IMG/VR virus record: IMGVR_UViG_3300017697_000016
Coordinates: 2,903 to 66,902 of that record
Length of the DNA: 64,000 nt
Source: a virus
Reading direction: 5' to 3' (one strand)
The notes under the pieces were generated by a model that was not told the origin of the DNA, did no database searches, and saw only the letters and a program-made list of their open reading frames with translations. Shown here in pieces: positions 10,781 through 26,061 of the stretch. Position 1 is the stretch's first letter, and each line of letters begins with the position of its first letter. The position numbers were made by a program, and so were the translations under genes.

Positions 10781-10787
10781 GGATAAA

Positions 10788-11171
10788 ATGACAACAAATA
10801 ACAACGTTGAAAAAACAACCTTTGGCTATATCGTTACCTGGGTTAAGACAGAAACATATCTTGGTAAAATTATGGTATTTGATAAGCAAGGTGGCAAGAC
10901 GCCAATTTACTTTAATCAAAATGCGACTAAGAGTTGGTTTATTAATAGTGGCAAGTTTAAAGTTAGCTACATTAACACTCAAGAAGGTAAGTTATACGAA
11001 CAAGAAATGACTGAAGGATCAGTATTTCATGCTCCTCCGTGTATGCCTGCAGGACTAGAATTATTATCTCAAGAAGGATCTATTTCTCAGATTAGCGATA
11101 AAGATGATAAAGAAGATCGACTGTATTTGTCTGAGGCAGTGCTAGAAGTAGAAAAAAGTCCGTTTGTTTAA
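10788..11171 (+). CDS. Cupin-fold protein, apparently lacking metal ligands
   Basis: Start MTTNNN with GAGG SD; cupin-like WFINSGKFKV and EGSVFHAPP segments. Confidence 0.55.
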   Translation: MTTNNNVEKTTFGYIVTWVKTETYLGKIMVFDKQGGKTPIYFNQNATKSWFINSGKFKVSYINTQEGKLYEQEMTEGSVFHAPPCMPAGLELLSQEGSISQISDKDDKEDRLYLSEAVLEVEKSPFV

Positions 11172-11713
11172 GACAACGTAAAATTATAAGCAATAGATAT
11201 TCTTGGCTCGCTACTTTGGTTATGTTCGACATAATGGGTGAGCCAAGAAGGAAATGCAATTACTAACCCATTAAACGGAGTAACAGACCATCTAGGAGAG
11301 TTATGCAAGTTTCCATTATTAACATAACTTCTAGGAATAGTTAACTCAACATTTTGATGCGGTGACATAAAAATAATATTACCGCTATCTTCATTGGCAG
11401 TTACATAGTATACAAAACTAACCCAATTGTCTGCATGTGCATGTGGATGATTTATATGAAACGATTGTTTGTTTAATATATTAACCCAACATTCATTAAG
11501 ATTAACTTTTAAATGACTATGAAGTCCTTGTAATTCTTTAAAGCCATTTGCTCTAGATACCATCCATTCAGTTAAATCAGAAAGTTCATTAACAAACGGG
11601 TCAACTGTTACACTTTCACCTACTAAGCTGTTACAGTATGTTGCAATTATATTATTATCGACTTTAGGTTCGTCGCTGGCTAGAAAACTAGGAAATAGCG
11701 GAGTTATATTCAT
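11168..11713 (-). CDS. 2OG-Fe(II) oxygenase (HxH type)
   Basis: WVN..HPHAH..SFVYY..FPSWLTHYV..RISIAYN. Confidence 0.85.
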   Translation of the reverse strand: MNITPLFPSFLASDEPKVDNNIIATYCNSLVGESVTVDPFVNELSDLTEWMVSRANGFKELQGLHSHLKVNLNECWVNILNKQSFHINHPHAHADNWVSFVYYVTANEDSGNIIFMSPHQNVELTIPRSYVNNGNLHNSPRWSVTPFNGLVIAFPSWLTHYVEHNQSSEPRISIAYNFTLS

Positions 11714-13254
11714 TTGTGGAACTGACTATAATATTCTAAACTAGTCGGAAACCTAGCAGTAATTTTTTCTTTATCTAAGTTGTTATTATTAATAACAGTT
11801 TGTAAATCCTTAACCATGTCGTCGAAGTCTACATTCCAAAATTTCATATTACTATGTTTAAAACTAGTATACGGATTTATTTTATGTCCAGCTAACATGT
11901 AAATATTAGCACCTAATGTTTCAAACTTTAGTTTATCTTCTATATTGAAGAATTGAGATCCTCGAAGTTCGTAAATTTCTTTTAACAAATCACTATCGTT
12001 AAACTCTTGCATTTGTATGTCGCGCCAATACTGTGTATCGTCTCTATTTGTCATAGCGTAATGCAATGTAATAAAATCTGCAAAATATAAAAACTGTTCA
12101 CGACATACGTTATTAAATGTATGTGCGTCAAAATTGTTTAATGCATCTTTGCCTTCTGCAATGTTTACAAAGTTCAATAAAAATTCATGTACGCTCATTA
12201 ATCCATTTGATTCTAACGGTTCAATAAATGCACCAGCAAGTCCGATACTTATACAGTTTTTGACCCAAAGTCGTTCGCTCATGCCATTGCGCATGTGTAT
12301 ATGCTTAAATTCCATTTCATCAGCAACCGGGCCTAAATAATCTTTAAACTCTTGTAATGCTTGTTCTTTAGTGGTGTACTTGCTTGCATAATTATATCCA
12401 GTACCGATACGCTCCCAAGTTGGTATTTCCCATACCCATCCGTACCCTAGTGCAACTGAATTAGTATAAAGTCTTAATTCTTTTTCTTTATCTTTATACG
12501 GCCGTGCTGCTGCCCAAGCACAGTCAGTATAAGTTTTATTATTAAACTCGCCCCACGGTTCTTCTAATACACCTTCAATCAATGCACGTTTAAATCCAGT
12601 GCAATCAAAAAATAAGTCGCCGGTAATTGATCCTTGATCTGTATCTAAACTTGTAATGTATCCGTTTTCATCAGTTTGCGCTCCGTTCACATCTGTAACT
12701 ATATGTATTACGCCCTTAGGCAAACAATATTCGTCACGCAAATAAGCGTAAAATTTATGAGTGTCAAAATGCCAGGCGGCATCTTTTTCTAACGACCAAA
12801 TGTTTCCTATTACTCCTCCATCACCAAAAGGCGTAACAGGAACTTTGTTAGAATCCAAACATTGTGATATAGGTGACATGTCGTTAACTAGATTTTCAAA
12901 AGGTACCTTAGTAAGATATTGATGTTGAAACCATTCTGCTACACTGAAGAATCTTTGATCTAATCTTCCAAACGGATAATGAAATCCTACTTTGTCATCT
13001 TTATGAAAGTTTTCAAATCGAATACTCAGTTTATTAGTAGCATTGCATTTTGTAATAAAATCAATGTCAGGTATTTCTAAGTATTTTTGCCATCGGCGCA
13101 TTAATTGCGTGGTGCTTTCGCCTACTCCTACTACGGGTTTTGTCGGCGATTCGACAATCGTAATGGTATTATTTGGAAATGCTTTGGCCATAGTAGCTGC
13201 TGTCATCCAACCTGCACTACCGCCACCAACAATTACAATATCTTTAAATTTCAT
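11710..13254 (-). CDS. prnA: Flavin-dependent tryptophan-halogenase-family protein (Hal1)
   Basis: GGGSAG FAD motif, VGVGEST, catalytic Lys in ATNKLSIRF, WVWEIP, FIEPLESNG. Confidence 0.92.
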   Translation of the reverse strand: MKFKDIVIVGGGSAGWMTAATMAKAFPNNTITIVESPTKPVVGVGESTTQLMRRWQKYLEIPDIDFITKCNATNKLSIRFENFHKDDKVGFHYPFGRLDQRFFSVAEWFQHQYLTKVPFENLVNDMSPISQCLDSNKVPVTPFGDGGVIGNIWSLEKDAAWHFDTHKFYAYLRDEYCLPKGVIHIVTDVNGAQTDENGYITSLDTDQGSITGDLFFDCTGFKRALIEGVLEEPWGEFNNKTYTDCAWAAARPYKDKEKELRLYTNSVALGYGWVWEIPTWERIGTGYNYASKYTTKEQALQEFKDYLGPVADEMEFKHIHMRNGMSERLWVKNCISIGLAGAFIEPLESNGLMSVHEFLLNFVNIAEGKDALNNFDAHTFNNVCREQFLYFADFITLHYAMTNRDDTQYWRDIQMQEFNDSDLLKEIYELRGSQFFNIEDKLKFETLGANIYMLAGHKINPYTSFKHSNMKFWNVDFDDMVKDLQTVINNNNLDKEKITARFPTSLEYYSQFHK

Positions 13255-13274
13255 ACTCAGTTATACTCCAATAA

Positions 13275-13294
13275 TATTTATAGTGTTGTAAATA
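13275..13294. promoter_or_regulatory. Divergent late promoters driving Hal1 (minus) and Hal2-Hal3 (plus)
   Basis: tattta 13275-13280 and taaata 13289-13294 within a 66-bp intergenic gap. Confidence 0.65.
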
Positions 13295-13320
13295 CTTGCA
13301 TAGCATAATTGAGAGGCAAT

Positions 13321-14814
13321 ATGATTAAATCGTTAACAGTTTTAGGTGGCGGCAATGCAGGATTAATGTCTGCATTATATCTCAAAACATCTGTACCAGA
13401 TGTCAAGTTTACTATTATTAAGTCGAGTAAGATTGGCACAATTGGAGTAGGCGAAGGCAGTACAGAACACTGGATGTACTTTGCTAAAGCAGTAGGAATT
13501 AGTTTTGTCGAGCTTGTTAAAGAGTGCGGCGCAACTTTTAAAATGGGATTAAAATTTGAAAACTGGCACGGTGATGGTACTAGTTATTTTCATAGTCTCC
13601 CAACTGCTTTTACACATCAAGATCCGCTTACCGGTGTTGCTCATCAGATGATGGGATTAATTGCCAACGGTACTAGTACTCAAGATCTAAATTGGAAGTT
13701 GCCAATGGAAGGATATGTTGCCGAACCGTTTGAGAACGTATTCCAGTTCCACTTTGATAGTGAAAAATTAAATGCATTTTTAATTAAAAAATCTATCGAA
13801 GCCGGTATTAATATTATCGAGGCTGATATCGTAAATACTAATGTAGATAATGAAGGCTTTGTAGAATCAATTGTAGACACTAACGGTAATGTACACTTCG
13901 CTGACTTCTTTATTGACAGTAGTGGATTTAATCGTGTTATTGCATCTAACGTAGGAGCAGGATGGGTTGATTGGTCGCATTATCTTCCATTAAATAGCGT
14001 CATTGCTTTTCAAACTCCTTACCAAGAAGAACTTCCTCCGTATACACTAGCACGTTGTATGAATGCAGGATGGATGTGGCGAGCGCCTGTACAAGAACGC
14101 TTTGGTAACGGTTATGTATATGATGACAGATTTATTACCGAAGAAGAAGCATTAACAGAAGTTCAACAATACTTTGACTTTCCATTAAAAGTAGGTCGTA
14201 AAATAAAATATAAATCAGGACATGTTAATAAGGCATGGATTAAAAATGTAGTATCTATCGGACTTAGTAGTAACTTTGTAGAGCCATTAGAAGCCAGCAG
14301 TATTTCTACTACTATTCAACAAAGCAGATTATTAGCAACTGCATTATGGAACTGGACACGTGAAGACACTGCATCCCCCGATAAGTATAATGAAGTAGTA
14401 GATAATATGATGCATAATATTTTAGACTTTATTCAGTTACACTACTACACACAACGAGAAGATACAGAGTTTTGGAGATGGGTTAAAAATGAATTACCTA
14501 GAACAGAATTTATTAAGAACAACTTAGAAAATTTTAAAACTAATTTTGTAAATCAACTACTTTTGCCCGAAGACGGCGCAGCAGATAACTATATGATATA
14601 CGATTGCTTAAATTGGATTCAAGTTATGCACGGATTACGTATGTTTGATGTCGACTCAATAAAAGAATTATACAACAGACGATGTAAACAATTTTATAGT
14701 AAGTTAGATGCAGAGCAATTAAGTTATTTGCCTAACGAACCAACAGCAGATTATTGGTTTACTTGCAGGGATGCAATTAATATTATTAACAACGAACTAA
14801 AGGTACAACTATGA
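13321..14814 (+). CDS. prnA: Flavin-dependent tryptophan-halogenase-family protein (Hal2)
   Basis: GGGNAG, IGVGEGS, ATFKMGLKF, WMWRAP, FVEPLEASS; start MIKSL with GAGG SD. Confidence 0.92.
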   Translation: MIKSLTVLGGGNAGLMSALYLKTSVPDVKFTIIKSSKIGTIGVGEGSTEHWMYFAKAVGISFVELVKECGATFKMGLKFENWHGDGTSYFHSLPTAFTHQDPLTGVAHQMMGLIANGTSTQDLNWKLPMEGYVAEPFENVFQFHFDSEKLNAFLIKKSIEAGINIIEADIVNTNVDNEGFVESIVDTNGNVHFADFFIDSSGFNRVIASNVGAGWVDWSHYLPLNSVIAFQTPYQEELPPYTLARCMNAGWMWRAPVQERFGNGYVYDDRFITEEEALTEVQQYFDFPLKVGRKIKYKSGHVNKAWIKNVVSIGLSSNFVEPLEASSISTTIQQSRLLATALWNWTREDTASPDKYNEVVDNMMHNILDFIQLHYYTQREDTEFWRWVKNELPRTEFIKNNLENFKTNFVNQLLLPEDGAADNYMIYDCLNWIQVMHGLRMFDVDSIKELYNRRCKQFYSKLDAEQLSYLPNEPTADYWFTCRDAINIINNELKVQL

Positions 14815-16319
14815 TTAAATCACTATGCATTCTAGGTGGCGGCACAGCTGGGCTTATTGCAGCGTTAATGGCAAGATCATCATATCCAAAATTAAGTATT
14901 ACAGTAGTAGAATCAAGTGAATACGGAATTGTCGGAGTGGGGGAAGGCAGTACAGAACACTGGGCAGGATTTATGCAGCACATTGACGTTGATGTTCCTA
15001 CATTAGTTAGAGAAACTGCTGCTACATATAAGACAGGAATTAGATTTACTAACTGGCACGGCGATGGCACAGAATATTGGCACAACTTATTTGAAGACTT
15101 GTCTCATCAAGATCAAAAAGTCGGACTATACACAGGCATGATTAAGTTAATTGCAGATAATGTAGATCCTGTTGATACAGTATTGCCGACTGGACGTAAA
15201 TCATTACACGCACAGCCGTTGCACTATTCGGTACACCAATACCATTTCGATACTAACAAATTAAATGTATTCATGCATAAGCTATGCAGCGAACGAAATA
15301 TTACAGTTATTGACGATAAAATTAATGACGTTACGCTAGATAGTCAGGGCAATGTACACAAGTTAATTGGTGAGAAAGATTTTTACACCGCAGATTTCTT
15401 TATTGACAGTAGTGGCTTTCGACGAGTAATTAGCTCTAAACTTAATGTTAAATGGAACAGTTGTGCAGATCAATTGCCTATGAATTCTGCATTAGCAGCA
15501 CCTACGCCATACGAAGAAGAAATTCCTTCACATACCGAAGCTAGAGCATTAAGTTCAGGATGGATGTGGCGTATCCCTACGCAAGATAGATTTGGTAACG
15601 GGTATGTTTACTGCGACAAATTTATTAGTGACGAAGATGCCGAAGCAGAATTTAAATCACAATTTCCGTATGAAATTACAGTTGCTAAAAAAATTAAATT
15701 TGAAGCAGGTTACTTAGACGAGCTATGGGTTAAAAATTGTCTTAATGTAGGCTTAGCAGGAATGTTTGTTGAACCGCTTGAAGCAACTAGTATTGGATTT
15801 ACTATTCAACAGATGTTTGGATTCTTAATAAGTTTGCCAAATTGTAGTTCTAAAAATACACTAGCACGAAGCACATACAACGATACATTTAAAATAGTTG
15901 CACAAAATATTATTGACTTTGTGCAACTACATTACTTTACTGAAAGAAAAGATAGTGAATTTTGGAAGTGGTGCAACAACGGCGGCATTACTAAATCAGA
16001 ATTTAACAAAACACATTTAGATAACTTTAAAAAAACATTGCCGGGGCAATACGCATTTCAAGATAAGTTTTTAATGTTTAAAGAGTTAAACTGGTTGCAA
16101 GTTATGCATGGATTACGCCTGTACGATTATAAAACACTTAATGAATGGTTCTACGATAACTTAACTCATACTATTCCGTTTATCGAAGAACAACTTAGAG
16201 AACGAGAATTTGTTACATCAAGTATTCAATATTTTTCACATAGAGAAGCGTTGCGTCATTTGACAGAACTTACAGAAACTATGATGATAAGAGATATTAA
16301 AGATTTAATTAGTACGTAG
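14811..16319 (+). CDS. prnA: Flavin-dependent tryptophan-halogenase-family protein (Hal3)
   Basis: GGGTAG, VGVGEGS, ATYKTGIRF, WMWRIP, FVEPLEATS; ATGA overlap with Hal2. Confidence 0.92.
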   Translation: MIKSLCILGGGTAGLIAALMARSSYPKLSITVVESSEYGIVGVGEGSTEHWAGFMQHIDVDVPTLVRETAATYKTGIRFTNWHGDGTEYWHNLFEDLSHQDQKVGLYTGMIKLIADNVDPVDTVLPTGRKSLHAQPLHYSVHQYHFDTNKLNVFMHKLCSERNITVIDDKINDVTLDSQGNVHKLIGEKDFYTADFFIDSSGFRRVISSKLNVKWNSCADQLPMNSALAAPTPYEEEIPSHTEARALSSGWMWRIPTQDRFGNGYVYCDKFISDEDAEAEFKSQFPYEITVAKKIKFEAGYLDELWVKNCLNVGLAGMFVEPLEATSIGFTIQQMFGFLISLPNCSSKNTLARSTYNDTFKIVAQNIIDFVQLHYFTERKDSEFWKWCNNGGITKSEFNKTHLDNFKKTLPGQYAFQDKFLMFKELNWLQVMHGLRLYDYKTLNEWFYDNLTHTIPFIEEQLREREFVTSSIQYFSHREALRHLTELTETMMIRDIKDLIST

Positions 16320-16860
16320 CACCGTCAATCTCAGTATCGCTATTGAAACTAATGATAGTTTTTGGTGTTGCTGTTTTGTTTACAGGTGCCCTATGTATAA
16401 CAAAACTAGGAAATGTAAGTATATCGCCTTCTTGAACATCCATTGTAATAACTTCACGACTCCACGGATCAATTAGTTCTGTTTTTGGAGTGCCGTCAGG
16501 TAAGTCCAAATAATACACATTAGTCCATTGACATTTAGTGTGTACATGCCATCCGTGTGTGCTACCTGTATTATATTGTTGAAACCAAATATTATGTATG
16601 CTATAAGATGCATAACCCAATTCACTGTATATAGATGTTAGTGCTTTTAATAAATGAGGCTGCATTACATCTGTCCAAGGACGTGGATCGTACGACTCTT
16701 TGTAATCGCAACGAGTTATATCTAAAGTACTAGTACCTTCTTCGTAAATTCTTTCTGCACTATCTTGTTCTCTAATTAATTTTAACACAGAGTCTTTTAT
16801 TAATGTGTGCTCTTCAAACTTAGTAATGATGGCAGGAACTGTTAGTTTAATCTTCTTCAA
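16309..16860 (-). CDS. 2OG-Fe(II) oxygenase (HxH type)
   Basis: WFQQY..HGWHVH..NVYY..FPSFVIHRAP..IISFN. Confidence 0.8.
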   Translation of the reverse strand: MKKIKLTVPAIITKFEEHTLIKDSVLKLIREQDSAERIYEEGTSTLDITRCDYKESYDPRPWTDVMQPHLLKALTSIYSELGYASYSIHNIWFQQYNTGSTHGWHVHTKCQWTNVYYLDLPDGTPKTELIDPWSREVITMDVQEGDILTFPSFVIHRAPVNKTATPKTIISFNSDTEIDGATY

Positions 16861-17498
16861 TCTAAATGATCCTTAGTTATAATTTGCTTACTATTCATCA
16901 TCATCTGTTCTAATTCTATATGCACGTTTTCTGAGACACTGTCCCATGGCATTCCCATTGCAGGACGTCCGTCCCATTTTAAGTCTGCGTTTGTGCCGTT
17001 AGCATCTACGTATTGTATAAATGCTTGTATTTGTTCATTGCCTTTAAACGCACCTTTGCGCCAGTGCGGCAGTTTATTTCCGGGATATATTAACATATCG
17101 CCCTTTTCTAATAAAACTCTTTCAATTGTATCGTCTTCATGCTTTACACACAGTAACCAATCAACATCATCTTTATCTAACGTTACTGACACAGTGTACT
17201 CTGAACTTCTGCGATCATAATGAGGATGAAGTACTGCTCCTGTCCTGTATATTCTTCCGTACGAATACGATGGATATAAAGTTTTATTTACGGCTGCTTC
17301 AACTTGAGGCTGTATTAATAAAGATAGTGTTTCAATAAACAACGGTGAATAAACAGAAAAACTTTCTGCCATGCCTTGTTCTTTACCAGCATCGGGATTC
17401 ATGATATCTATACAGCTATCCATCATACGAAACTCTGCTGATATAAAATCGCATATATCTAAACTTACTGCATTTTTTATAACTGTAACTTCACTCAT
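16857..17498 (-). CDS. 2OG-Fe(II) oxygenase (HxD type)
   Basis: YSYGRIY..LHPHYDR..GDMLIYPG..HWR. Confidence 0.8.
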   Translation of the reverse strand: MSEVTVIKNAVSLDICDFISAEFRMMDSCIDIMNPDAGKEQGMAESFSVYSPLFIETLSLLIQPQVEAAVNKTLYPSYSYGRIYRTGAVLHPHYDRRSSEYTVSVTLDKDDVDWLLCVKHEDDTIERVLLEKGDMLIYPGNKLPHWRKGAFKGNEQIQAFIQYVDANGTNADLKWDGRPAMGMPWDSVSENVHIELEQMMMNSKQIITKDHLD

Positions 17499-18022
17499 AG
17501 TATTGGCACCAAACTAAATTGTTCAAAGGGCAAGGCAGGCTCGTCGTGTACATCAAAGCCTAATGTCATCCTTGGCGTGTTAAATTCTTCTATTACTTCT
17601 ACTTTATGCTGACGATAACCTGGACCGATATAAATGTTTCCAATTTCATTTTTTATTTCGTATCCTTCAAACATTGTTTTTGTCTCTTTTGGATCAATAC
17701 TAATATATCCATGAAACGTCCAATCGTGTCCGTGCCAGTCTAACACTTGAGTAGGCATATGATAATTTATCCACGACTGCATCCATAAAGGTTTGTCGTG
17801 TCCTGCAAAAGTTCTTATGTGGGTTGATAATTCTTTAAACAACTCGTAGAATACAGGCGACGGTGATGTCGCAGCAAATACATTGTACATTCCATATGCC
17901 CAAGTTGAGTCTTTATTTGGAAACGCATTTAAAAAATGTCCATGCACTCTATGTAAATCACGCACCATATATTCATGATTATCTATTACATTTTGAGACT
18001 TATGTAATACCCAATCGCTCAA
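17495..18022 (-). CDS. Putative 2OG-Fe(II) oxygenase (HxH type)
   Basis: SWINYH..LDWHGH..QHKV..RMTLGFD. Confidence 0.7.
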   Translation of the reverse strand: MSDWVLHKSQNVIDNHEYMVRDLHRVHGHFLNAFPNKDSTWAYGMYNVFAATSPSPVFYELFKELSTHIRTFAGHDKPLWMQSWINYHMPTQVLDWHGHDWTFHGYISIDPKETKTMFEGYEIKNEIGNIYIGPGYRQHKVEVIEEFNTPRMTLGFDVHDEPALPFEQFSLVPIL

Positions 18023-18624
18023 AACAATAATCCTAAATTAATATTTACAACGCACCTAAATTTACTTTCTCTAGCAAATGAACTTGCATGATAAGTGTGC
18101 CCAGGAAAAATAACTACCCTTCCTTTTTTAGGCGTAACACGTTGTCTTACAGTAAAGTTATTTTTTTGCATTTCGTCAAAGTCTTTTTCAAACGTAGGAT
18201 TTGATTCATTAAAAATAAAAGTATCTCCGTCGCTATCGTTGACATAATAGATAGCAATATAATGAGGATACAAACTGTCAATATGCGGCATATGCCAGTC
18301 TAATTTAGAGTACTTGTTTTGATGTGTTAAGTTAAAGCGCATACGTTCTAACATATTAAACTGTACAGGAGACTTGTCTGCAATAGACAAATATAACGGA
18401 TATATTGATTCAAAAAACGGAGAAACTGCTTTTTGTTCTTCATACAGAAAATGATTAAACCCTTGTATGTTTTCTTCGTCCTTAGCAAGTTGCTCTTCAT
18501 TTGAAACTAAGTTTGTATTAAAATACCACGGAAACTGCAAACTAGTCACTTTGTCTAAAATGTGATTTTGATATGTTACAGGTATAACATCATCAATTAC
18601 ATAAATTTCATTATCTAGTTCCAT
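18019..18624 (-). CDS. 2OG-Fe(II) oxygenase (HxD type)
   Basis: PHID..IYYVNDSDGDT..PKKGRVVIFPG..YHAS..RCVVNIN; likely start MELDNE at 18624. Confidence 0.82.
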   Translation of the reverse strand: MELDNEIYVIDDVIPVTYQNHILDKVTSLQFPWYFNTNLVSNEEQLAKDEENIQGFNHFLYEEQKAVSPFFESIYPLYLSIADKSPVQFNMLERMRFNLTHQNKYSKLDWHMPHIDSLYPHYIAIYYVNDSDGDTFIFNESNPTFEKDFDEMQKNNFTVRQRVTPKKGRVVIFPGHTYHASSFARESKFRCVVNINLGLLF

Positions 18625-18625
18625 G

Positions 18626-19327
18626 TTATCCGCCTTTTGCAAAAAATACTAATGTTAATCTCGAATCTTCTTTAGTCTTGCCAAAGAAATTATTTGGAGC
18701 ATGCCACACTTTTGGATCAAATAAAATACATCTATTATAAACATTTTCAATAGTCATAGTAGGCCTAAATGTTGCACGTTGCTCTTCTCGGTATCTAGCT
18801 AGTGCAGCACGTTCATCTTCATTTGCATGTAACACATCCTTATGAAAGAAATCACTATATCGATCTGCATCGACTGCTATTTGATCTTTATAAATTGTTG
18901 TACCGCTGTTCGGAGCAGGTTCTGGATTTAAATAAATTAATCCAGAAACACTAAGAGTCGGATCATCATCGTGAACCCAGCCGTTGCCGTAAGTTTCATC
19001 AATTAAATGAAAGTTAGCCCATAGCTGTTCAAACCCTTTAAACATTGGTAAGTGTACTAGAAGTCGTTTTGCAAAGTCTTCAAAAGCTCCTTGATCAATT
19101 TGATTAAGAAATTGCGTTCGTGATCCTGGATATGTACTATCTGAAGCTAATTTATATTCTTGACTTAGTGCCAATGTCCTCCAAAGAGACGGAACATCAA
19201 AAAAGTTATCGATAATTTTTGTAGGTAAAAATTTATGTTTTCTTCGATTTTTTAAATCACGGTTTTGAATTAAGTCTACACTGTTTCTAGAATTATCCAA
19301 AATACTTTCTAAATTAACTTCTCTCAT
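18626..19327 (-). CDS. 2OG-Fe(II) oxygenase-like protein (DUF6445-like)
   Basis: IIDNFF..YPGSRT..WVHDD..GLIYL..GTTIY..YNRCILF..WH..RLTLVFF. Confidence 0.78.
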   Translation of the reverse strand: MREVNLESILDNSRNSVDLIQNRDLKNRRKHKFLPTKIIDNFFDVPSLWRTLALSQEYKLASDSTYPGSRTQFLNQIDQGAFEDFAKRLLVHLPMFKGFEQLWANFHLIDETYGNGWVHDDDPTLSVSGLIYLNPEPAPNSGTTIYKDQIAVDADRYSDFFHKDVLHANEDERAALARYREEQRATFRPTMTIENVYNRCILFDPKVWHAPNNFFGKTKEDSRLTLVFFAKGG

Positions 19328-19959
19328 CTGATTGCGTTCCCAAAAAATACTAATGTCATTCTAGCGTCTTCTTTAGTCTTGCCAAAGAAGTCATTTGCAC
19401 TATGCCAAGTACGAGGATCAAACATTACGCATCTATTATATAAGAAGTCTACTTCAGCTTCAGGAGGAAAAGTTGCACGTTGCTCTTCTCTATATTTCCA
19501 AAACTTCTTACGTTCTTCGGCATTTTCGTTTGTAACATCCTGTTGAAACATCTCTGTATAAAACTCTCCGTTAAATTCTTCAACATCTTTATAAAATGTT
19601 GTACCAGAGTGTAGCGGACATTCCGGAGTTAGGTATATAATACCTGCAACATCATGAATAGGATTGTCGTCATGGACCCAACCTCTGCCCCATGTTTCGT
19701 CAATGATCTGAAAGGTTGATTGAATTTCATCAAACCCTTTAAACATTGGAAGATGTTCTAATAATTTGCATTCTAGTACTTCGTATAACTCCATACTAAT
19801 TTCTTGCAGCATTGGTGATCTTAATCCTGGCCAAGTGCCTCGCTCTCCTTTGTAGTACTCTAACTCTAACGCCATTTTACGTATTAAGTCCGGAGTTTCA
19901 AAGAAGTTATCTACAACTGTAGTAGGGATCCAAGGAGTACCTTTACCGCGATCAGGCAT
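19324..19959 (-). CDS. 2OG-Fe(II) oxygenase-like protein (DUF6445-like), paralogue of the adjacent gene
   Basis: VVDNFF..WPGLRS..WVHDD..GIIYL..YNRCVMF..WH..RMTLVFF. Confidence 0.78.
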   Translation of the reverse strand: MPDRGKGTPWIPTTVVDNFFETPDLIRKMALELEYYKGERGTWPGLRSPMLQEISMELYEVLECKLLEHLPMFKGFDEIQSTFQIIDETWGRGWVHDDNPIHDVAGIIYLTPECPLHSGTTFYKDVEEFNGEFYTEMFQQDVTNENAEERKKFWKYREEQRATFPPEAEVDFLYNRCVMFDPRTWHSANDFFGKTKEDARMTLVFFGNAIR

Positions 19960-20537
19960 TATATCTTCTCCGCAGTAAAGTTCATTGTTAATACAATTCT
20001 ACTAGGTAGCATCTTAGGACACGTACTAGCATGATAGTGTCTACCATTAAATACTGCAAACTTTCCCATTTCTGGAGCAACATCAACACGTGGAACATAT
20101 TTTTCAGAAGCTTCAGTTTGATCAAAGATTACAGTATCGCCATCACTTTTATTTAAGTAGTACAATGCAGTGTAGTGATCAAAATCACAATCAACATGAG
20201 GCTGATTATAAACATAAGGCTGACTCGGTAAATTGTATCTAGTTTTTAATAAAAACCCTAACCTAAAACGAATTACTCCAATTGGTTTCAGTCCTGCTGC
20301 TGCGCATCCGTTTTCGAATACTGGTTTAAACATTTCAAAGTAATCACTTTGTGTTCCGTTATTGTTAAACAACAAATGTGTAAAGCCTGGGGTATTTGCT
20401 CCGGGCTTAGTTGCTCTTTCATAAGTTGTATCTTCTAAATAGTGCCACGGAAATGTAACATCAGTAACAGCATTGTATAATTTTTTCTGATATTCGCTGT
20501 CAACAATGTTAGAAAATTCTTGTAATTCAATTGCCAT
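19959..20537 (-). CDS. 2OG-Fe(II) oxygenase (HxD type)
   Basis: PHVD..LYYLNKSDGDT..YHAST..RIVLTMN; likely start MAIELQ at 20537. Confidence 0.82.
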   Translation of the reverse strand: MAIELQEFSNIVDSEYQKKLYNAVTDVTFPWHYLEDTTYERATKPGANTPGFTHLLFNNNGTQSDYFEMFKPVFENGCAAAGLKPIGVIRFRLGFLLKTRYNLPSQPYVYNQPHVDCDFDHYTALYYLNKSDGDTVIFDQTEASEKYVPRVDVAPEMGKFAVFNGRHYHASTCPKMLPSRIVLTMNFTAEKI

Positions 20538-21252
20538 TTTTATTAATCCTATACTTGTTTCTATCGACTGCATTAGTTGGTGCATCAGTTTTTAATCTTT
20601 GCCAACACGGAATACTAATAGATAGTCTAGTATTAGTTGGCTCTGCAATATGATATGCTCTTGACGGAATGTACAATGCATCACCTGGTTCAAGGGTAAC
20701 ATCAATTGCTGCACGTAGTGCATTATTATTTACTCTTCCATTCATTCGTCCAGTTGCAAATAGGCTTGAAATCCTATTTTCAAATACTTTCCAGTGTGTT
20801 GTGCCTTCTACTTGAATAATAAAATTTGACGGATAGTCGTCATGTACTGAAAAAGAACTGTGTGATTTTAGTCCTGCATATACATGAATAGCTGCATGAA
20901 CATCAAACATTTCTTCAAATCGACTTAGTAATTCATTTGTATAATCATTATGAAATCCGTAATTAGTAATTACTAACCCGGCGCCGTTATTTACTTTGTC
21001 AAAAATAAATTGCTTATCTTGTACAGGCTTATAGTAGTTCCACGCCTTTTGATGTTCTGGTATTACAATCTTATTACAATGTTCGTCAATTAGTTCAAAC
21101 TCGTAAAAGTTTGTGTTATTCATGCAATCTTCTACATCATTCCACGTTACTAGCTGTTCGGGATTACTAATAAAGTTTTTAAAATAACATGGCTTGTCAT
21201 CATTTTCTAAATCAACTTTAGTAAAGATCTTTTCTGCTAAGTCATGATACAT
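20527..21252 (-). CDS. JmjC / cupin_4 oxygenase (YcfD/NO66-like protein hydroxylase family)
   Basis: SFSVHDD..NFIIQVEG..W..LEPGDALYIP..YH..RLSIS. Confidence 0.82.
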   Translation of the reverse strand: MYHDLAEKIFTKVDLENDDKPCYFKNFISNPEQLVTWNDVEDCMNNTNFYEFELIDEHCNKIVIPEHQKAWNYYKPVQDKQFIFDKVNNGAGLVITNYGFHNDYTNELLSRFEEMFDVHAAIHVYAGLKSHSSFSVHDDYPSNFIIQVEGTTHWKVFENRISSLFATGRMNGRVNNNALRAAIDVTLEPGDALYIPSRAYHIAEPTNTRLSISIPCWQRLKTDAPTNAVDRNKYRINKNGN

Positions 21253-21835
21253 CTACAATCTCCAAATTAAAAGCTAGTGACACTCTTTCTTCTTCGGTTT
21301 GACTAGGCAATACTCCGTGCGGTAGGTACGAAGGGAACAACACCATTCTTCCATCTCTAGGTGGATATCGGCAGGTGGCTCCACTAATAGCAGTATGTGT
21401 GTCAATGTGTGCTGCTGATGCGATGATATGATCCTCGCTTGTATTTTTATAGAAAACAATGTCGCTTGCATTATTTGGAACAGTTACGTAGAACGTGCCT
21501 GATAAAAAAGAGCCAGCGTGAGTATGAATTTGATTTGAGTGACCTTTGCCGTTAACATTGAACCATAAATTGAGCATTTTAAATTTGTAACCTGGTGCGT
21601 AACCGTAGTCGCCTAAGCAGCGTTCAGAAGCACCTAAAATATAATCTATTAATGTGCTAAGTTCATTATGATCGCCGCCTTTAAAGTCTGCCGACTGCCA
21701 TCCTCCATTATTACTAATTTGTCTGCCATTAGGGTCTTCGTCGCGAAGTCGTTGACATAGCGCTCTTATAGGTTCAAGGTTTATATTTGTGTCATCCCAC
21801 CAAATCGGTGTAGGAAAATAAAAATCTAAATTCAT
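21242..21835 (-). CDS. 2OG-Fe(II) oxygenase (HxH type)
   Basis: SNNGGWQS..WFNVN..HTH..LSGTFY..FPSYLPHGV..RVSLAFN. Confidence 0.85.
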   Translation of the reverse strand: MNLDFYFPTPIWWDDTNINLEPIRALCQRLRDEDPNGRQISNNGGWQSADFKGGDHNELSTLIDYILGASERCLGDYGYAPGYKFKMLNLWFNVNGKGHSNQIHTHAGSFLSGTFYVTVPNNASDIVFYKNTSEDHIIASAAHIDTHTAISGATCRYPPRDGRMVLFPSYLPHGVLPSQTEEERVSLAFNLEIVDVS

Positions 21836-22647
21836 TTAAAAAAATCCTGTGCTGTCATTATACTGTGTTGAAAGGCGAATGTGTGACTCCATCTAAAATC
21901 TATACTATCTTCGATATACGGACAGTGCGGGGTACTAGATTTATACATTGTTAATTTAGAATATTCTGCAGGAACCATTCCTACTTTAACAAACCCAAAC
22001 TCAGCTGCTTCGTCGTCAGTCCAATTAGTCCACTTAGATAAACGTTTAGTTGTAGAAAGTTCTTTATACCTCTTATACATAGGATGTAATTCGTCAACTT
22101 GGAAGTCATAAAAACTAGCAAAGTTGCCATCATTTTTTCCAAATAACTCGTGAACTTGTCCTTTGTACTCGTATAAGTTTGTACCTGTAGTACCTAGAGC
22201 GTGATCTGAAAACCACAAATTTCCAACTATACCATGCGGATAATCTACGTGAGCCATTCTAAATGCATCAATGGGCTTACTTTTATTTTTCCAATACAAA
22301 TTCCCCCATTCGTGTACTTCTTCATTTGCAGAATACGGTTCGATATTATTTTTATAAAAATTAATAATTAAATTAATAACACCTTGCGTCATCCACTGCG
22401 GTAAATGTATTGTGTCAAACGGATTTGGATCAGTGCATGTATCTGCATTATTATTAATAGACACTGGAAAGGTAGATACAAGTTCTTTATATTTTTCAAA
22501 TCCGTCTGCTTGAAACGGGTTGTCAGCAATCCAATATCCTGTACTATCGGTAAGCGAAACGTATTCTACTTTCCAATCTTCTAATAGCTTTAATTTAATT
22601 TCTTGATCAAATGTATTAGCATCAGGGTTGCAAAATCTAAATTCCAT
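21832..22647 (-). CDS. Putative 2OG-Fe(II) oxygenase-like protein
   Basis: AHVD..GNLWF..GTNLY..PHCPY..RWSHTF; start MEFRF coupled by TAATG. Confidence 0.62.
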   Translation of the reverse strand: MEFRFCNPDANTFDQEIKLKLLEDWKVEYVSLTDSTGYWIADNPFQADGFEKYKELVSTFPVSINNNADTCTDPNPFDTIHLPQWMTQGVINLIINFYKNNIEPYSANEEVHEWGNLYWKNKSKPIDAFRMAHVDYPHGIVGNLWFSDHALGTTGTNLYEYKGQVHELFGKNDGNFASFYDFQVDELHPMYKRYKELSTTKRLSKWTNWTDDEAAEFGFVKVGMVPAEYSKLTMYKSSTPHCPYIEDSIDFRWSHTFAFQHSIMTAQDFFK

Positions 22648-23243
22648 TATCCAACATTCCACGTCATTACTATTCGTTCTTCATCTGTATTGTTCGGCTG
22701 TGTTCTATGTTTTAACCAGGCCGGAAAAATTAAAACATCATTTGTTTTGCATGGAATGGATTTCCATAAAGTCTCTTCAGGATCCATAGGCGTATTACCT
22801 TTATGATATTCTAACGGGTCTCTAAACTCAATATATCCACTATCTTTTGGAAGATTTAAATATGATGTAACTACAAACAATGCTTGATTATGATTATGCT
22901 CAAGCGTTACGCCTGTTTTTTTGTGCGTGTTGATCCAAGAATTTAAAACAGTAGCATCGCTATTAGCCCTAAATTCAAACTCTTTCCACATAAAGTCAAT
23001 AGGTTGAATTAACCACTCTCTAAAGTCTTCAAGTACATCCCACATGTGTGGAGGATAGCTTTGTTGAGAGGCTGTCGAAAATGCTTGTCCTTGCTCTAAT
23101 AAAGAATTTTCTGGTGTCTTTTGTTTTACTTCTTCAATTAAAGGCAAAAGTGTGCTATATGGAAATTCGTAATTAAATTTCCATATTAGCCTTGGGAAGG
23201 GATCTGCTAGTGTCCCATTAAGCGGGGGCAAGTGACGTTTCAT
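22647..23243 (-). CDS. 2OG-Fe(II) oxygenase (HxH type)
   Basis: SWIN..EHNH..IEFRDP..FPAWLKHRT..RIVMTWN. Confidence 0.85.
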   Translation of the reverse strand: MKRHLPPLNGTLADPFPRLIWKFNYEFPYSTLLPLIEEVKQKTPENSLLEQGQAFSTASQQSYPPHMWDVLEDFREWLIQPIDFMWKEFEFRANSDATVLNSWINTHKKTGVTLEHNHNQALFVVTSYLNLPKDSGYIEFRDPLEYHKGNTPMDPEETLWKSIPCKTNDVLIFPAWLKHRTQPNNTDEERIVMTWNVG

Positions 23244-23463
23244 ACGTTTCTTTAGCTAACTCTAAGCCTAAAATAACACCTTGCATTTTGGTAGTATCTT
23301 CTAGCAGCTCTTGTCGCTCTGAGAAGTCAATTGTTGTAATTCCGTATGGATTTAACTTAGTATCGCTAAATTCTGTTTCTAATTCTTTTAATCGTGCTAA
23401 CTTTTCGTCTAGTTGCGCTTGAACTTTAGTAGTCGCAATATTAAGCTCTGTAATGTAGTCCAT
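23218..23463 (-). CDS. Hypothetical coiled-coil protein (81 aa)
   Basis: AGGAG SD, heptad-like Leu/Glu pattern, upstream TAAGTA promoter variant at 23485-23490. Confidence 0.65.
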   Translation of the reverse strand: MDYITELNIATTKVQAQLDEKLARLKELETEFSDTKLNPYGITTIDFSERQELLEDTTKMQGVILGLELAKETYETSLAPA

Positions 23464-24233
23464 AATGTTTTTCTCCTGTGTTTATACTTATTCATCACTG
23501 AATTTGTTCGTTTTAATCTTGACTTCAGTGTGTCGTCATGTACTACGCTCCTATTAGCGTAGTTAAATGCTTTTTCTAATAGCTTGTCATCTTCATTAGC
23601 ATCGTCGCATATTAAATCAATATTTGAAATGCCAAAACTTCTTGGTACTGGAATATATTGACACAACGGCGTTCCTGCTTTAACAATTGTCGTTCCGTTA
23701 AGTACATGCCAGTATAATTGAACATTAACAACGTGTGCATGCCGCGGATCTAAAATACCTTGTGCTGCTGTAAATCTTGCTTCATTGTTATACGGTATAG
23801 GCAATTGCAATAGTAGTACATCGTCTGATGCTTTTAATCTCCAAGGAGTATCTATTTTAACTGCTACACTAAGTGACTTGGTAGGGTCATCTAACGTAGG
23901 AGCTGTTTGATGCTGATTGTGTGAGCCTACGTAACGTTCACTACCAGGGCCACCTTCTGTATTAAATCTCATTGCTTCGCCTGCAATGAAATCTATTTTA
24001 CTACCGTCTGTTTTAATTTCAAAGTCAGCAGGAGCACGTAAGATATATCCCATTGATACTAGCTTAGTAATACCAGGACAATTCTTAGTATGCATATTTC
24101 CGTTTTCAGGATCAGGTGGATCGTTGCGTTGCATCCATTCACGTTTTACTTTATGTGCAGGAATAATTGGTACAACTTCTGGTACACCCGGTTCTAACGA
24201 ATAAAATCTTATCCAAGGCTTTTCTTTAAACAT
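23409..24233 (-). CDS. Conserved-looking phage hypothetical protein (KxCPG motif; possible dUTPase-like beta fold)
   Basis: TKNCPGI..GYILRAP..KIDTPW..KAGTPLCQYIP; likely start ATG 24233 with GGTGG SD. Confidence 0.6.
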   Translation of the reverse strand: MFKEKPWIRFYSLEPGVPEVVPIIPAHKVKREWMQRNDPPDPENGNMHTKNCPGITKLVSMGYILRAPADFEIKTDGSKIDFIAGEAMRFNTEGGPGSERYVGSHNQHQTAPTLDDPTKSLSVAVKIDTPWRLKASDDVLLLQLPIPYNNEARFTAAQGILDPRHAHVVNVQLYWHVLNGTTIVKAGTPLCQYIPVPRSFGISNIDLICDDANEDDKLLEKAFNYANRSVVHDDTLKSRLKRTNSVMNKYKHRRKTLWTTLQSLILRLLKFKRN

Positions 24234-24251
24234 TATTTTTACCACCGTGTA

Positions 24252-24329
24252 AGTATGGGTAGTAGTACAGAATTTGACAAAAGTATCCGGTGTATACTGA
24301 TCAGGATAGATAGTAGATATTTCTGATCA
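24252..24329 (-). pseudogene. Relic fragment of a halogenase paralogue
   Basis: Translates *SEISTIYPDQYTPDTFVKFCTTTHT, aligning without gaps to Hal4 WGKLSSLYPEEFTPETFARMYCPTNT (25618-25695). Confidence 0.55.
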
Positions 24330-24345
24330 AAGTTCTGTACTACTA
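24260..24345. repeat. Long imperfect inverted repeat (hairpin)
   Basis: Perfect 13-bp arms TAGTAGTACAGAA (24260-24272) / TTCTGTACTACTA (24333-24345), extendable inward to about 28 bp with bulges. Confidence 0.85.
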
Positions 24346-24399
24346 GTGCGACAATAATATAAGGACATGTTTTTATAAAATTTACAAAAACTAACATCA

Positions 24400-26025
24400 T
24401 TAATCCTTAAAGTTGTCAACACCTCCATAGATGTTCTCTTTTAAATATTCGTAATGCGAAGGTAGCTTACTTACATAGTCTGCTAACCATTCTTGATGTT
24501 GATGATAACGTCTTCTAGAATCTTCAAGTCTTCCAGATGCATCTGGCACTCCTCTTGCTACTTGATTATTAACTTCTTCAAGTACAAGTTCCTTGGTTGA
24601 AATATTTCTTACACCCATGCCAGCTGCAATATAATTATTACCTTGTTGAGTTTCTTGATAAACATTGCCGCCGCTAATAGCACCAAGAAGATTAGTATAA
24701 CTGTTTTGCTGAGGTAAAAAGTCATTAAACGCAATAGGATGATAAACAACCGTTTGTGTTACGTATCTCCAATACGGAGTATCTGTTCTTCTAGAAAGTG
24801 CATAGTGCTGAGAAACAAAGTCTCGGAACGCTAGTAAGTCATATTCGACAGCATAATTGTATCCATCTCGTTCAGCTTGTGTACAATATCCGTCTCTTCT
24901 ATTTAAAACATCAACTAATTTAATAATGTTTTCATGTGTTGTTAATAGTCCTGTAGATTCTAAAGGTTCAACAAATCCGTAGCTTAGGCCAATACCAACA
25001 ACATTCTGAGCCCAGGCTTTACGTCTACGGCCGTGCTTAATGTCAATCTGTGACATTTGTGCCGCATCAGCAATTTCTTTACCATGTACTTCTTCTAAGT
25101 GTGCTCTAAATTCATTCATTGCACCTTCTAAGGAAACAAATCTACTAGAATAAACATACCCAGTGCCAATGCGATGCCATAGCGGAATGTTCCATACCCA
25201 ACCGTTACCAAGTGCATGACAGTCAGTAACATTGTGCATTTGTTCTTCTCTATTCGTGTAAGGAAGTCTACATGCTAGAGCTTTGTCATTCTGCAAATGC
25301 GGAGTAAATGGGATAAATTGTTCGCCGAGCCATTTCTCTAATAATAAAGATTTAAACCCAGTACAATCAATAAACAAATCAGCTTGTACGCCATTACCGT
25401 TTGATAACATGATACTTGTGAAGTATCCTCTAGAATCTTGATTATAAGAATGAACAGTTCCAAGAGTATGTGTAACCCCGTTTGGAATACAAATTTCAGT
25501 CTTTAAATACTGTCCAAATGCTGTTGCATCCATATGATAAGCAGTATCGTATGTAAAGTCATAATTTCTTAGTTTGCCTTCTTCGTCTCTAGTTTGTTTA
25601 TTTTGTTCAGCTAACGCAGTGTTAGTTGGACAATACATTCTTGCAAACGTTTCTGGAGTAAACTCTTCAGGGTACAACGACGATAGTTTACCCCATGTTT
25701 GTAATCCGTCATGTGCGTCAGTATAATCATAGCCACTACCGAACGGATATTCAAAACTTGTGTTGTCGTTATCTCTAAAATTTGTAAAGCGAATAGAGTT
25801 TTTGTATGTAGCGTTACACGCAGCCATCCAATCTTTATCTTCTAATCCAAGTAATCTTAAAAATCTATTAATATGTCCTAACGTACTTTCGCCGACGCCA
25901 ACAGTAGCATAATCTTCTGATTCGACTAATTCTACTTCAAGATGCGGACATAGTTTTGCTAATGCTGCGGCTGTCATCCATCCTGATGATCCGCCGCCAA
26001 TGATTGCAACTTTTTTAATGTGCAT
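24400..26025 (-). CDS. prnA: Flavin-dependent tryptophan-halogenase-family protein (Hal4)
   Basis: GGGSSG, VGVGEST, ATYKNSIRF, WVWNIP, FVEPLESTG; AGGAG SD. Confidence 0.92.
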   Translation of the reverse strand: MHIKKVAIIGGGSSGWMTAAALAKLCPHLEVELVESEDYATVGVGESTLGHINRFLRLLGLEDKDWMAACNATYKNSIRFTNFRDNDNTSFEYPFGSGYDYTDAHDGLQTWGKLSSLYPEEFTPETFARMYCPTNTALAEQNKQTRDEEGKLRNYDFTYDTAYHMDATAFGQYLKTEICIPNGVTHTLGTVHSYNQDSRGYFTSIMLSNGNGVQADLFIDCTGFKSLLLEKWLGEQFIPFTPHLQNDKALACRLPYTNREEQMHNVTDCHALGNGWVWNIPLWHRIGTGYVYSSRFVSLEGAMNEFRAHLEEVHGKEIADAAQMSQIDIKHGRRRKAWAQNVVGIGLSYGFVEPLESTGLLTTHENIIKLVDVLNRRDGYCTQAERDGYNYAVEYDLLAFRDFVSQHYALSRRTDTPYWRYVTQTVVYHPIAFNDFLPQQNSYTNLLGAISGGNVYQETQQGNNYIAAGMGVRNISTKELVLEEVNNQVARGVPDASGRLEDSRRRYHQHQEWLADYVSKLPSHYEYLKENIYGGVDNFKD

Positions 26026-26055
26026 TATTATCTCCTGATGATTTGTATACGCAAA

Positions 26056-26061
26056 TATTTA
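26056..26061 (-). promoter_or_regulatory. Late promoter TATAAATA for the Hal4-oxygenase operon
   Basis: Full TATAAATA (tatttata 26056-26063) 30 nt upstream of the Hal4 start. Confidence 0.7.

Follow-up and report, generated by a model that had tools for sequence, protein, structure and literature searches.

An enlarged Syn9-type cassette of halogenase and oxygenase genes behind the fibre genes of an uncultured phage

Introduction

In cyanophage Syn9, Iyer, Abhiman, de Souza and Aravind (2010, Nucleic Acids Research, PMC2938197) described a cluster of ten tandem dioxygenases from at least five families, among them the MINA/NO66-type gp49, together with two tryptophan halogenases and a protein of the dUTPase fold in which a cysteine is conserved. 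Here we analyzed a related island of halogenase and Fe(II)/2-oxoglutarate (2OG) oxygenase genes in a 64-kb stretch of phage DNA, in the following called the window, which corresponds to positions 2,903 to 66,902 of the 66.9-kb IMG/VR record IMGVR_UViG_3300017697_000016. An earlier note on this DNA, made from the letters alone, had read the island as a late-expressed system that tailors the proteins of the phage's own virion.

VirX1, an iodinating flavin-dependent halogenase of cyanophage Syn10 (PDB 6QGM), is described as a trimer with a large accessible active site that takes bulky substrates, and its entry in the review lists no natural substrate (PMC8407142). In cyanophage papers prnA has been treated as a free-tryptophan enzyme or as an accidental acquisition, and the oxygenases as genes for DNA repair, nitrogen/2OG or 'protein modification, lipid metabolism' (PMC1079782, PMC2984593, PMC3037559, PMC9964418, PMC9602691). 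In the words of one of these papers such genes 'have not been specifically investigated' (PMC9602691).

Results and Discussion

Collinearity with the Syn9 cassette

By blastp the window was collinear with Syn9 gp38-gp54 and with S-RIM44 gp169-gp157 at 29-78% identity, with the enzyme families matched one to one. All genes of this collinear stretch lie on the minus strand. At the fibre side, three paralogous glycine-rich fibre proteins, fibG1-3 (26929-27777, 27807-28661 and 28684-29535), correspond to Syn9 gp38/39 (57-78% identity), and the protein encoded at 26391-26927 to gp40 (53%). The halogenase HAL4 (24400-26025) matches the Syn9/Syn10 gene gp42 (55%), and it is followed by the counterparts of gp43 (23409-24245, 51%) and gp44 (23218-23463, 73% over 44 aa). 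Among the oxygenases, Oxy5_d (22647-23243) corresponds to gp45 (37%), 21832-22662 to gp46 (42%), 17495-18022 to gp47 (37%), Oxy5_c (21242-21835) to gp48 (47%), the JmjC open reading frame (ORF; 20527-21252) to gp49 (46%), 19959-20585 to gp51 (37%), DUF6445_b (19324-19959) to gp52 (46%), 18019-18642 to gp53 (48%) and 16857-17498 to gp54 (38%). Given this gene-for-gene agreement with gp38-gp54, we rejected the idea of a new kind of island. The island is almost certainly an enlarged copy of a cassette of the Syn9 gp40-gp54 type, which is conserved in marine T4-like cyanophages, and as an object it is a member of a known and widespread group.

Besides VirX1-type halogenases, this cassette encodes a Cys protein like gp43, a small protein like gp44 and some ten non-redundant oxygenases of the Fe(II)/2OG type from at least six families; the genes for the glycine-rich fibre proteins and the gp40-like protein immediately precede it. 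In the window the oxygenases belong to the Oxy_5, gp46-like, gp47-like, gp51/53-like, DUF6445, gp54-like and JmjC_2 families, and a halogenase heads the array, as HAL4, the gp42 orthologue, is the first gene of its unit. Syn9 gp41-gp54 show the same families in the same order with the same fibre-side neighbours, gp38/39/40. In the annotations of both Syn9 and S-RIM44 a long fibre gene comes first, then genes for glycine-rich 'tail fiber assembly' proteins and for one small protein, and these are followed by two halogenase genes and a series of 2OG oxygenase genes, behind which S-RIM44 has its neck genes gp13/14/15.

Compared with Syn9 the window has two more halogenases (four against two) and two more oxygenase genes (twelve against ten). 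HAL1 has been relocated to a separate late-type unit, which also contains an extra Oxy_5 gene, a HAL2/HAL3 pair stands on the other strand, a terminator and a separate late-type promoter lie between the gp40-like gene and HAL4, and a homologue of the TPR-fused gp50 was not detected in the window. The backbone differs as well, the fragment being about 18% of a genome with a sheath nearest to those of jumbo phages. Twelve oxygenases are no record, since cyanophage S-SCSM1 has been reported with 24.

Accessory genes among structural genes are known from cyanomyoviruses, in which a hyperplastic region between g15 and g18 of the structural module holds the host-like metabolic genes zwf, gnd and PTOX (Millard et al. 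2009, as cited in PMC2984593). The island likewise places accessory genes among late structural genes near the neck genes, with a content that varies among the window's relatives; unlike the host-like metabolic genes of the g15-g18 region, the cassette is found towards the fibre genes, and its genes are kept together as one conserved block. A second likeness is found in bacterial operons that pair beta-hydroxylase/PhyH-type 2OG oxygenases and sulfotransferases with tail-collar or collagen-like glycine-rich proteins as the predicted substrates (PMC2938197). There, too, 2OG oxygenases stand beside glycine-rich or fibre-like proteins, and the protein substrate was proposed from the neighbourhood alone; however, those operons have other enzyme families, include sulfotransferases, which the window lacks, and belong to a bacterial and not a virion setting.

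Linkage to fibre genes

To see how constant the module is, we used the alignment of the gp40-like protein in a scan of IMG/VR, which gave 232 confirmed stretches from which 80 loci were kept; being ascertained via this protein, the loci speak for the constancy of the module and not for its frequency among phages. In all 80 a glycine-rich fibre gene lay upstream and a halogenase downstream on the same strand. The recurrent order was giant fibre, glycine-rich fibre proteins, gp40-like gene, one or more halogenases, gp43/gp44-like genes and 8-12 oxygenases. The oxygenase count (8-12, median 10) comes from the 54 loci with at least 9.5 kb downstream, 22 of which end, as does the window, with a HAL2/3-type gene on the opposite strand. 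The gp40-like gene was found in 20 phage records, each of which was halogenase-positive with the gene just upstream of the halogenase.

The ten cultured cyanomyovirus species that we looked at are halogenase carriers. Fibre, glycine-rich, gp40-like, halogenase and oxygenase genes were linked in Syn9, S-RIM44, S-CREM1, P-TIM40, S-WAM1, P-RSM6 (with one 2OG oxygenase among the fibre genes) and S-SZBM1, and the halogenase was unlinked in S-MbCM6 (beside psbA), in P-SSM2 (a divergent copy) and in S-B64. Linkage to fibre genes in relatives, on which the earlier note had made its reading depend, was thus present in 80/80 IMG/VR loci and in seven of the ten cultured species.

Loci of this kind could also arise if the slot between neck and fibre genes were a recombination hot spot that gathers unrelated accessory genes, which would then share no function and owe their late promoters to the place where they landed. 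The hyperplastic region g15-g18 is a described case of such a region (PMC2984593), and in the backbone relatives of the window the slot from the NUDIX/cupin genes to the giant fibre ranges from empty to one or two halogenases with other genes. The cassette itself does not behave in this way: the same genes stand in the same order in 80/80 loci and across genera, where the enzymes retain 29-55% identity, which argues for selection on the gene set, and we consider a collection of unrelated genes very improbable.

Two cultured records contained interrupted frames. The halogenase match in S-PM2 (NC_006820, 121319-122608) has one in-frame TAA and one Gly_rich_2 frame of S-CREM1 (OP535465, 54758-55282) has five; both may be decaying copies.

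Late-type promoter motifs

The genes of the island form three units. Unit A comprises HAL1 and Oxy5_a (13254 down to 11168), unit B HAL2 and HAL3 (13321 to 16319) and unit C the genes from HAL4 through Oxy5_b (26025 down to 16309). As in T4-type late units, a TATAAATA-like -10 element without a -35 element was found upstream. The motif TATAAATA stands at 13275-13282 on the minus strand, 28 nt upstream of the HAL1 start, divergent from TGTAAATA at 13287-13294 on the plus strand upstream of HAL2, and TATAAATA occurs again at 26056-26063 on the minus strand, 38 nt upstream of the HAL4 start. This motif is established as the late promoter of T4, and presumably it serves the same purpose in cyanophages. 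Between the HAL4 promoter and the fibre operon there is a terminator-like hairpin with a U-run (26095-26125, minus strand; RNA fold -16.4 kcal/mol, z -5.0, equalled by 0/200 shuffles) that closes the fibre operon and separates the two.

The hexamer TAAATA was present 8-50 nt upstream of 10/42 genes of the window, compared with 1.7% of random windows (binomial 1.8e-9), and the genes headed by it are tube, neck, fibre and baseplate genes and the three island units. In the window 16/58 hexamers touch the 1327 non-coding bases. The octamer as such is not over-represented (6 found, 9.5 expected), so the signal lies in the non-random placement of the motif and not in its abundance. According to the earlier note the island units share the motif with sheath, tube and fibre genes; this was confirmed for the three units, the tube and the fibre genes, and no motif preceded the sheath ORF as called. 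Sigma-70-like sites in the island were at chance level (70 found, 69.2 expected), and among the scanned genes of the fragment there was no gene for the late factors gp55 or gp33.

The signal extends to the related loci. TAAATA was found 8-60 nt before the first halogenase in 64/74 loci, and before internal genes it was rare (gp43-like 3/63, Oxy5_d 0/58, JmjC 0/61). This agrees with the late-type expression claimed before, as a timing predicted from the motif. In four RNA libraries there are short contigs that match the island and the fibre genes at 99% identity or more; they indicate presence only, carry no timing and may include DNA carry-over. Judged from the sequences compared here, both the fibre linkage and the predicted late expression appear real and conserved.

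The halogenases

The claim of four full-length flavin-dependent halogenases was borne out, as all four ORFs match Pfam PF04820 Trp_halogenase (E 5.6e-95 to 1.6e-107; 319-361 bits against a cut-off of 21), and by the same search they are the only halogenases in the 66.9-kb record. The four translations also retain GxGxxG, the Lys equivalent to PrnA K79, WxWx(I/A)P and FxEPLE, as had been reported; the Lys stands in 'A-T-x-K' and HAL2 has the variant WxWxAP. Some of the motif names follow the review PMC8407142. In 33 HAL4-type sequences G10/G12/G15, K75, W276/W278/I280/P281 and F351/E353/P354/L355/E356 were invariant.

HAL4 (E 1.6e-107), the first gene of unit C, matches VirX1 (PDB 6qgm) with E 9.7e-192 over residues 3-536. 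It aligns end to end with the same GxGxxG, Lys, WxWxIP and FxEPLE Glu, which identifies it by sequence as a full-length VirX1 orthologue with a putative halogenating activity. To our knowledge the VirX1 type is the only characterised viral halogenase type. HAL1 (11710-13254, minus strand, E 5.6e-95), the first gene of unit A, is of the Syn9 gp41/S-RIM44 gp165 type (38-40% identity to both) and also has VirX1 as its best PDB match (4e-84).

HAL2 (13321-14814, plus strand, E 3.4e-97) probably starts at the ATG at 13321 after GAGAGG, the ORF being open from TTG 13309. It is 43% identical to HAL3 (14811-16319, plus strand, E 1.5e-97; blastp), which converges on unit C so that the 3' ends overlap by 11 nt. 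These two belong to a different subfamily from VirX1, as the best PDB match of HAL2 is 9luq_A (4.3e-65) and VirX1 follows only at 5.5e-42. No flavin reductase was recognised in the window, and a host enzyme is presumed to supply the reduced flavin.

The oxygenases

Twelve double-stranded-beta-helix oxygenases had been claimed; eleven are well supported by profile, paralogy or fold, and the one at 21832-22662 is weaker. All lie on the minus strand, eleven in tandem at 16309-23243 and the twelfth at 11168. Seven are above the Pfam curated cut-off, i.e. four 2OG-FeII_Oxy_5, two DUF6445 and one JmjC_2, and another four are supported by PHROG, paralogy, hhalign or fold instead.

The four Oxy_5 members (PF13759) are Oxy5_a (11168-11713, 75.8 bits, E 3.8e-21), the second gene of unit A; Oxy5_b (16309-16860, 41.7 bits; phrog_81 1.3e-30), the last gene of unit C; the gp48-like Oxy5_c (87.7 bits); and the gp45-like Oxy5_d (56.7 bits). 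A related protein, gp47-like (17495-18022), aligned by hhalign with the Oxy5_c family/Oxy_5 profile (probability 82%, E 1.1e-5) with the metal ligands in register and H97, H99 and H139 invariant. Two DUF6445 (PF20043) oxygenase-like copies follow each other, copy a at 18626-19327 (42.1 bits) and the gp52-like copy b (54.3 bits), and the gp49-like protein belongs to JmjC_2 of the MINA/NO66/YcfD type (PF08007, 58.9 bits). The gp53-like protein, a P4H-type oxygenase, remains below the Pfam cut-off for Oxy_5/Oxy_3 (21 vs 27 bits) and is supported by phrog_61 (3.5e-12) and by invariant H120, D122 and H185; the gp51-like protein is its paralogue (blastp 1.9e-25; phrog_81 1.6e-4).

For the gp54-like protein at 16857-17498 the AlphaFold2 (AF2) model (predicted local distance difference test, pLDDT, 87.9) had only 2OG oxygenases among its top Foldseek matches, with P. 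putida P4H as the best (E 2.6e-7), and H93, D95, H145 and R147 were invariant in its family. Its comparison with the gp53-like family by hhalign was not significant. The model has a 2OG-oxygenase fold. The PHROG label 'ferrochelatase' of this protein is wrong; 'DNA endonuclease V' and 'minor coat protein' are further misleading PHROG labels on the oxygenase families. The least certain of the twelve, the gp46-like putative oxygenase, matches phrog_1644 (3.4e-21), a PHROG that it has in common with the DUF6445 genes, and has invariant H138, D140 and H246; hhalign to DUF6445 was not significant (8.7%) and 0/22 members of its family match a Pfam 2OG family. Searches of PDB sequences with phmmer gave nothing meaningful for 16857, 17495, 21832, 23409 and fibG1, and a profile search of alignment A7 against the PDB gave nothing.

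In the alignments HxD...H is invariant or near-invariant in the gp54-, gp53-, gp46- and gp52/DUF6445-like families, and the JmjC translation shows by eye an H-D-D...H pattern. The Oxy_5 members and the gp47-like family have HxH...H instead of HxD...H, so their metal site and chemistry may differ. A role in DNA-base modification was dropped, as none of the twelve matches the TET/JBP families and AlkB-like signals were weak (3/22 gp54-like members, best E 0.0014).

Some of these families would also suit enzymes directed at the host, which would modify host macromolecules (ribosomal proteins via the JmjC protein, EF-Tu via a P4H-like enzyme, or the envelope) or would consume 2-oxoglutarate and so steer nitrogen-status signalling. 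JmjC_2 is a family of ribosomal-protein hydroxylases, and the P. putida P4H, the best fold match of the gp54-like protein, was solved with EF-Tu. A drawdown of 2OG, besides DNA repair, was proposed for the cyanophage 2OG oxygenases by Sullivan et al. 2010 (PMC3037559), but it would need no ten conserved distinct families. Action on the host moreover leaves unexplained both the halogenases and the strict adjacency to the gp40-like and fibre genes (80/80 loci), and a late-type promoter would be odd for host takeover. We consider this alternative quite improbable.

The fibre genes and the gp40-like protein

The three fibG proteins score over the cut-off for Pfam Gly_rich_2. The AF2 model of fibG (mean pLDDT 68, core >80) matched the fibre of cyanophage Pam3 (7ypx_A, E 2.6e-7) and the tail-tip proteins of Bxb1, with weaker matches to the glycine-rich domains of ALK/LTK. 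Because of the matches to the Pam3 fibre and the Bxb1 tail tip we regard fibG1-3 as fibre proteins and not merely as 'assembly' factors. Across 40 homologues many His, Tyr, Asn and Phe residues were invariant.

The gp40-like protein has invariant or near-invariant Trp residues (alignment A3) and ends, behind a variable acidic linker, in a conserved Trp-rich, aromatic/basic motif, P-[A/C]-W-[K/V]-R-Y-x-G-W-x-G-Y, which from its sequence looks like a docking or modification site. A complex prediction for HAL4 with this protein (alignments A4 and A3) gave a score of 0.00 against a mark of 0.32, a result that counts neither for nor against binding. Protein Atlas gave weak leads to XkdW and tail-assembly-chaperone clusters (0.84-0.85, TM 0.26-0.32), from which we name no family.

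Further fibre genes lie upstream at 29548-52870 on the minus strand and encode proteins of 592 aa and 106 aa and two giants of 4018 aa and 3033 aa that fall into PHROG tail-fibre families (phrog_9851, 1.8e-168 and 2.2e-130 for the giants). The giant fibres (31679-43735 and 43769-52870, minus strand) have CBM_5_12 carbohydrate-binding modules near their N-termini and no nonribosomal peptide synthetase (NRPS) or polyketide synthase (PKS) domains, and a 1582-aa protein at 53665-58413 contains a bactofilin-like stretch. Across the glycine-rich fibre genes (26001-30000) the G+C content is 0.43-0.47, compared with 0.35-0.37 in the enzyme island; Gly codon content probably explains the rise, which would also fit a separate origin.

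Possible function of the cassette

We tentatively favor the reading that the enzymes are made late together with the fibres and tailor a phage-encoded fibre-associated protein in several steps in the cytoplasm, which we regard as possible and hold with low confidence. The halogenases and oxygenases would be expressed late along with the fibres, and a multi-step hydroxylating and halogenating line would then act in the cytoplasm on a substrate that is already there. Since the enzymes need the cytoplasmic cofactors FADH2, Fe(II), 2OG and O2, this substrate would have to be intracellular during virion assembly. Candidates would be the Gly/His/Tyr-rich fibre proteins fibG1-3 and the conserved C-terminal tail of the gp40-like protein. 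That the natural substrates of the VirX1-type halogenases and the roughly ten oxygenases are in fact the phage's own fibre-tip components, i.e. these fibres and/or the Trp-rich tail, is a narrower proposal that we hold to be unlikely. Late timing we infer from the motif, and the joint action of the enzymes and the identity of the substrate are likewise inferred.

The evidence for tailoring of a fibre-associated protein consists of the collinearity, the fixed position behind the fibres, the association of the gp40-like gene with the halogenase, the placement of the promoters and the chance level of sigma-70-like sites. The fibre fold of fibG, the open active site of VirX1, the protein substrates of JmjC_2 enzymes and the lack of a scaffold-building enzyme count in the same direction. 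We also count in its favor the detection of a 2OG oxygenase in S-SCSM2R cyanophage virions that had been purified on CsCl (PMC12801897), and the contigs from the RNA libraries add weak support.

MibH, a peptide-acting halogenase of pathways for ribosomally synthesised and post-translationally modified peptides (RiPPs), would be a mechanistic precedent for the action of PrnA-family enzymes on Trp within a peptide. The island had been called RiPP-like; unlike MibH-type pathways, however, the window encodes neither the core machinery of lanthipeptides or other RiPPs nor a leader protease or an exporter. Of the proposal that the enzymes tailor the virion's own proteins, the conserved fibre linkage and the late-type promoters therefore stand, and the RiPP character in the strict sense does not, since no recognisable precursor, protease or exporter was found in the scanned ORFs. 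It would be speculative to take the gp40-like protein as a precursor-like candidate.

As previously stated for this DNA, Pfam/PHROG scans of the window ORFs (ORF 5589-5924 lay outside the scans) recognised no NRPS/PKS, transporter or scaffold-building enzyme, and no ligase family was found either. This bears on the alternative of a small-molecule pathway, in which the enzymes would work one after another on a free amino acid, a small peptide or a metabolite of the host, and the resulting organohalogen would be set free when the cell lyses or exert its effect within the infected cell. A secondary-metabolite role is the one that Iyer et al. 2010 proposed for the Syn9 cluster, and their paper also shows related gene neighbourhoods of bacteria in which these dioxygenase families and halogenases occur alongside NRPS, TonB receptors and SapC (PMC2938197). 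Many small aromatic compounds are substrates for halogenation by VirX1 in vitro (PMC8407142), the product predicted for a different cyanophage cluster is a halogenated metabolite of the amino-acid or sugar type (jumbo-phage review PMC7824862), and the one-to-one conservation of many distinct oxygenases fits a linear pathway. Such a pathway would, however, lack a scaffold-building enzyme, a ligase and an exporter, none of which is found in the window or the cassettes of Syn9, S-RIM44 and S-CREM1. A late-type promoter and a fixed post-fibre position are not what host-metabolism genes need, and the JmjC_2 clade is known for protein substrates. We consider a secondary metabolite somewhat unlikely, and favor protein tailoring over this published idea because the fibre linkage and the late-type promoter are conserved.

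Several observations weigh against protein tailoring, besides the published role of the Syn9 cluster and the missing RiPP machinery. A virion-protein substrate is a candidate only, with putative modified residues, and ten distinct conserved oxygenases fit a sequential small-molecule pathway equally well. The fibre fold as such may not need these enzymes, since the same fold occurs in Pam3 and Bxb1, and conserved gene order in T4-like phages can reflect inheritance and not function. In S-B64 a VirX1-type halogenase lies among replication genes, far from the Gly-rich gene. The backbone relatives have 0-2 halogenases of other types at the neck/fibre junction, and in the fragments of five of them (G001-G005) the gp40-like protein was not found; in one of these, the 262-kb G001, Oxy_5 genes are scattered over the genome.

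Co-variation of enzymes and fibres gives a weak signal only. Among 20 cyanomyoviruses, 11 had both a Gly_rich_2 fibre and a halogenase and four neither; five were discordant, three with the fibre only (S-SM1, P-RSM4 and Syn33) and two with the halogenase only (S-MbCM6 and S-PM2), so that co-occurrence gave p = 0.078 in a one-sided and p = 0.12 in a two-sided Fisher test. Even this signal is optimistic, because 10/20 phages were chosen for their halogenase and the phages are related. The counts come from Pfam Gly_rich_2 searches of whole records; tblastn with fibG2 gave four records (low-complexity filter) and was left unused.

Among the titles and abstract openings that we searched, with most subscription journals outside the search, none proposed that the cassette halogenates or hydroxylates a phage fibre or virion protein, and we regard this hypothesis as reasonable and apparently unpublished. 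The cassette is widespread, with 80 collinear IMG/VR loci. What is new here is the constant place of the cassette after the fibre genes and the conservation of its late-type promoter, which turn the question of the natural substrate of VirX1 into a concrete one for proteomics. If the fibre-tip components were indeed the natural substrates, residues in the virions of marine cyanophages would be iodinated, brominated and poly-hydroxylated by enzymes, and this would be the first case in which a structural protein of a virus is halogenated enzymatically; receptor binding or the toughness of the fibres could then be tuned chemically. Halogenation or hydroxylation of virion proteins would also be a determinant of phage host range or stability of a new class.

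Phage backbone and further genes of the window

Apart from HAL4, two genes of unit C, which the earlier note does not mention, encode no oxygenase. The gp44-like protein has 81 aa and is present in related loci. The gp43-like protein belongs to phrog_7084 (9.7e-54) and has an invariant C56, and DUF6065 is a lead only (Protein Atlas). Within the unit, a 154-nt non-coding gap (24246-24399) without TAAATA separates the gp43-like gene from HAL4.

The record has a completeness of 18% (CheckV), which suggests a genome of several hundred kb. In Pfam/PHROG scans the fragment was found to encode two tube-like proteins, a 1145-aa sheath, neck proteins, a gp15-like sheath stabiliser, NUDIX and cupin proteins, giant tail fibres and a baseplate wedge protein. 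The sheath (2118-5555, minus strand) is unusually long, and its best cultured matches are the jumbo phages Atu_ph07 and PA5oct at 42-48% identity. The jumbo phages matching the sheath infect Agrobacterium, Sinorhizobium and Pseudomonas, and no cyanophage is among the best cultured matches; in contrast, the fibre and enzyme module is closest to Syn9 and S-CREM1. As sheath and module thus have different closest relatives, the genome may be a mosaic of a jumbo-phage-like sheath and a Syn9/S-CREM1-like module.

For the backbone, 80 loci were kept from 152 confirmed uncultured stretches, and one relative contig was 99% identical to the window (L002/L092); a megablast of the island against the phage collection gave no match. 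The neck operon of nearly every backbone relative (loci L004-L079) ends with genes for a NUDIX hydrolase and a small cupin, which in the window occupy 10349-11171 on the plus strand, and variable genes, halogenases included, are inserted between or after these two. Between the sheath and the neck genes of the window lies a dNMP-kinase/thymidylate-synthase-like gene (5854-6414, minus strand). It is preceded by a perfect TTGACA-N17-TATAAT and therefore looks like an early-type gene nested in a late structural region.

The phage appears to be widespread, since 85-93% of the words sampled from 16300-26200 are present in each of 15 seawater/aquatic metagenome runs from 13 coded studies (2017-2025); the source sample itself may be among these runs.

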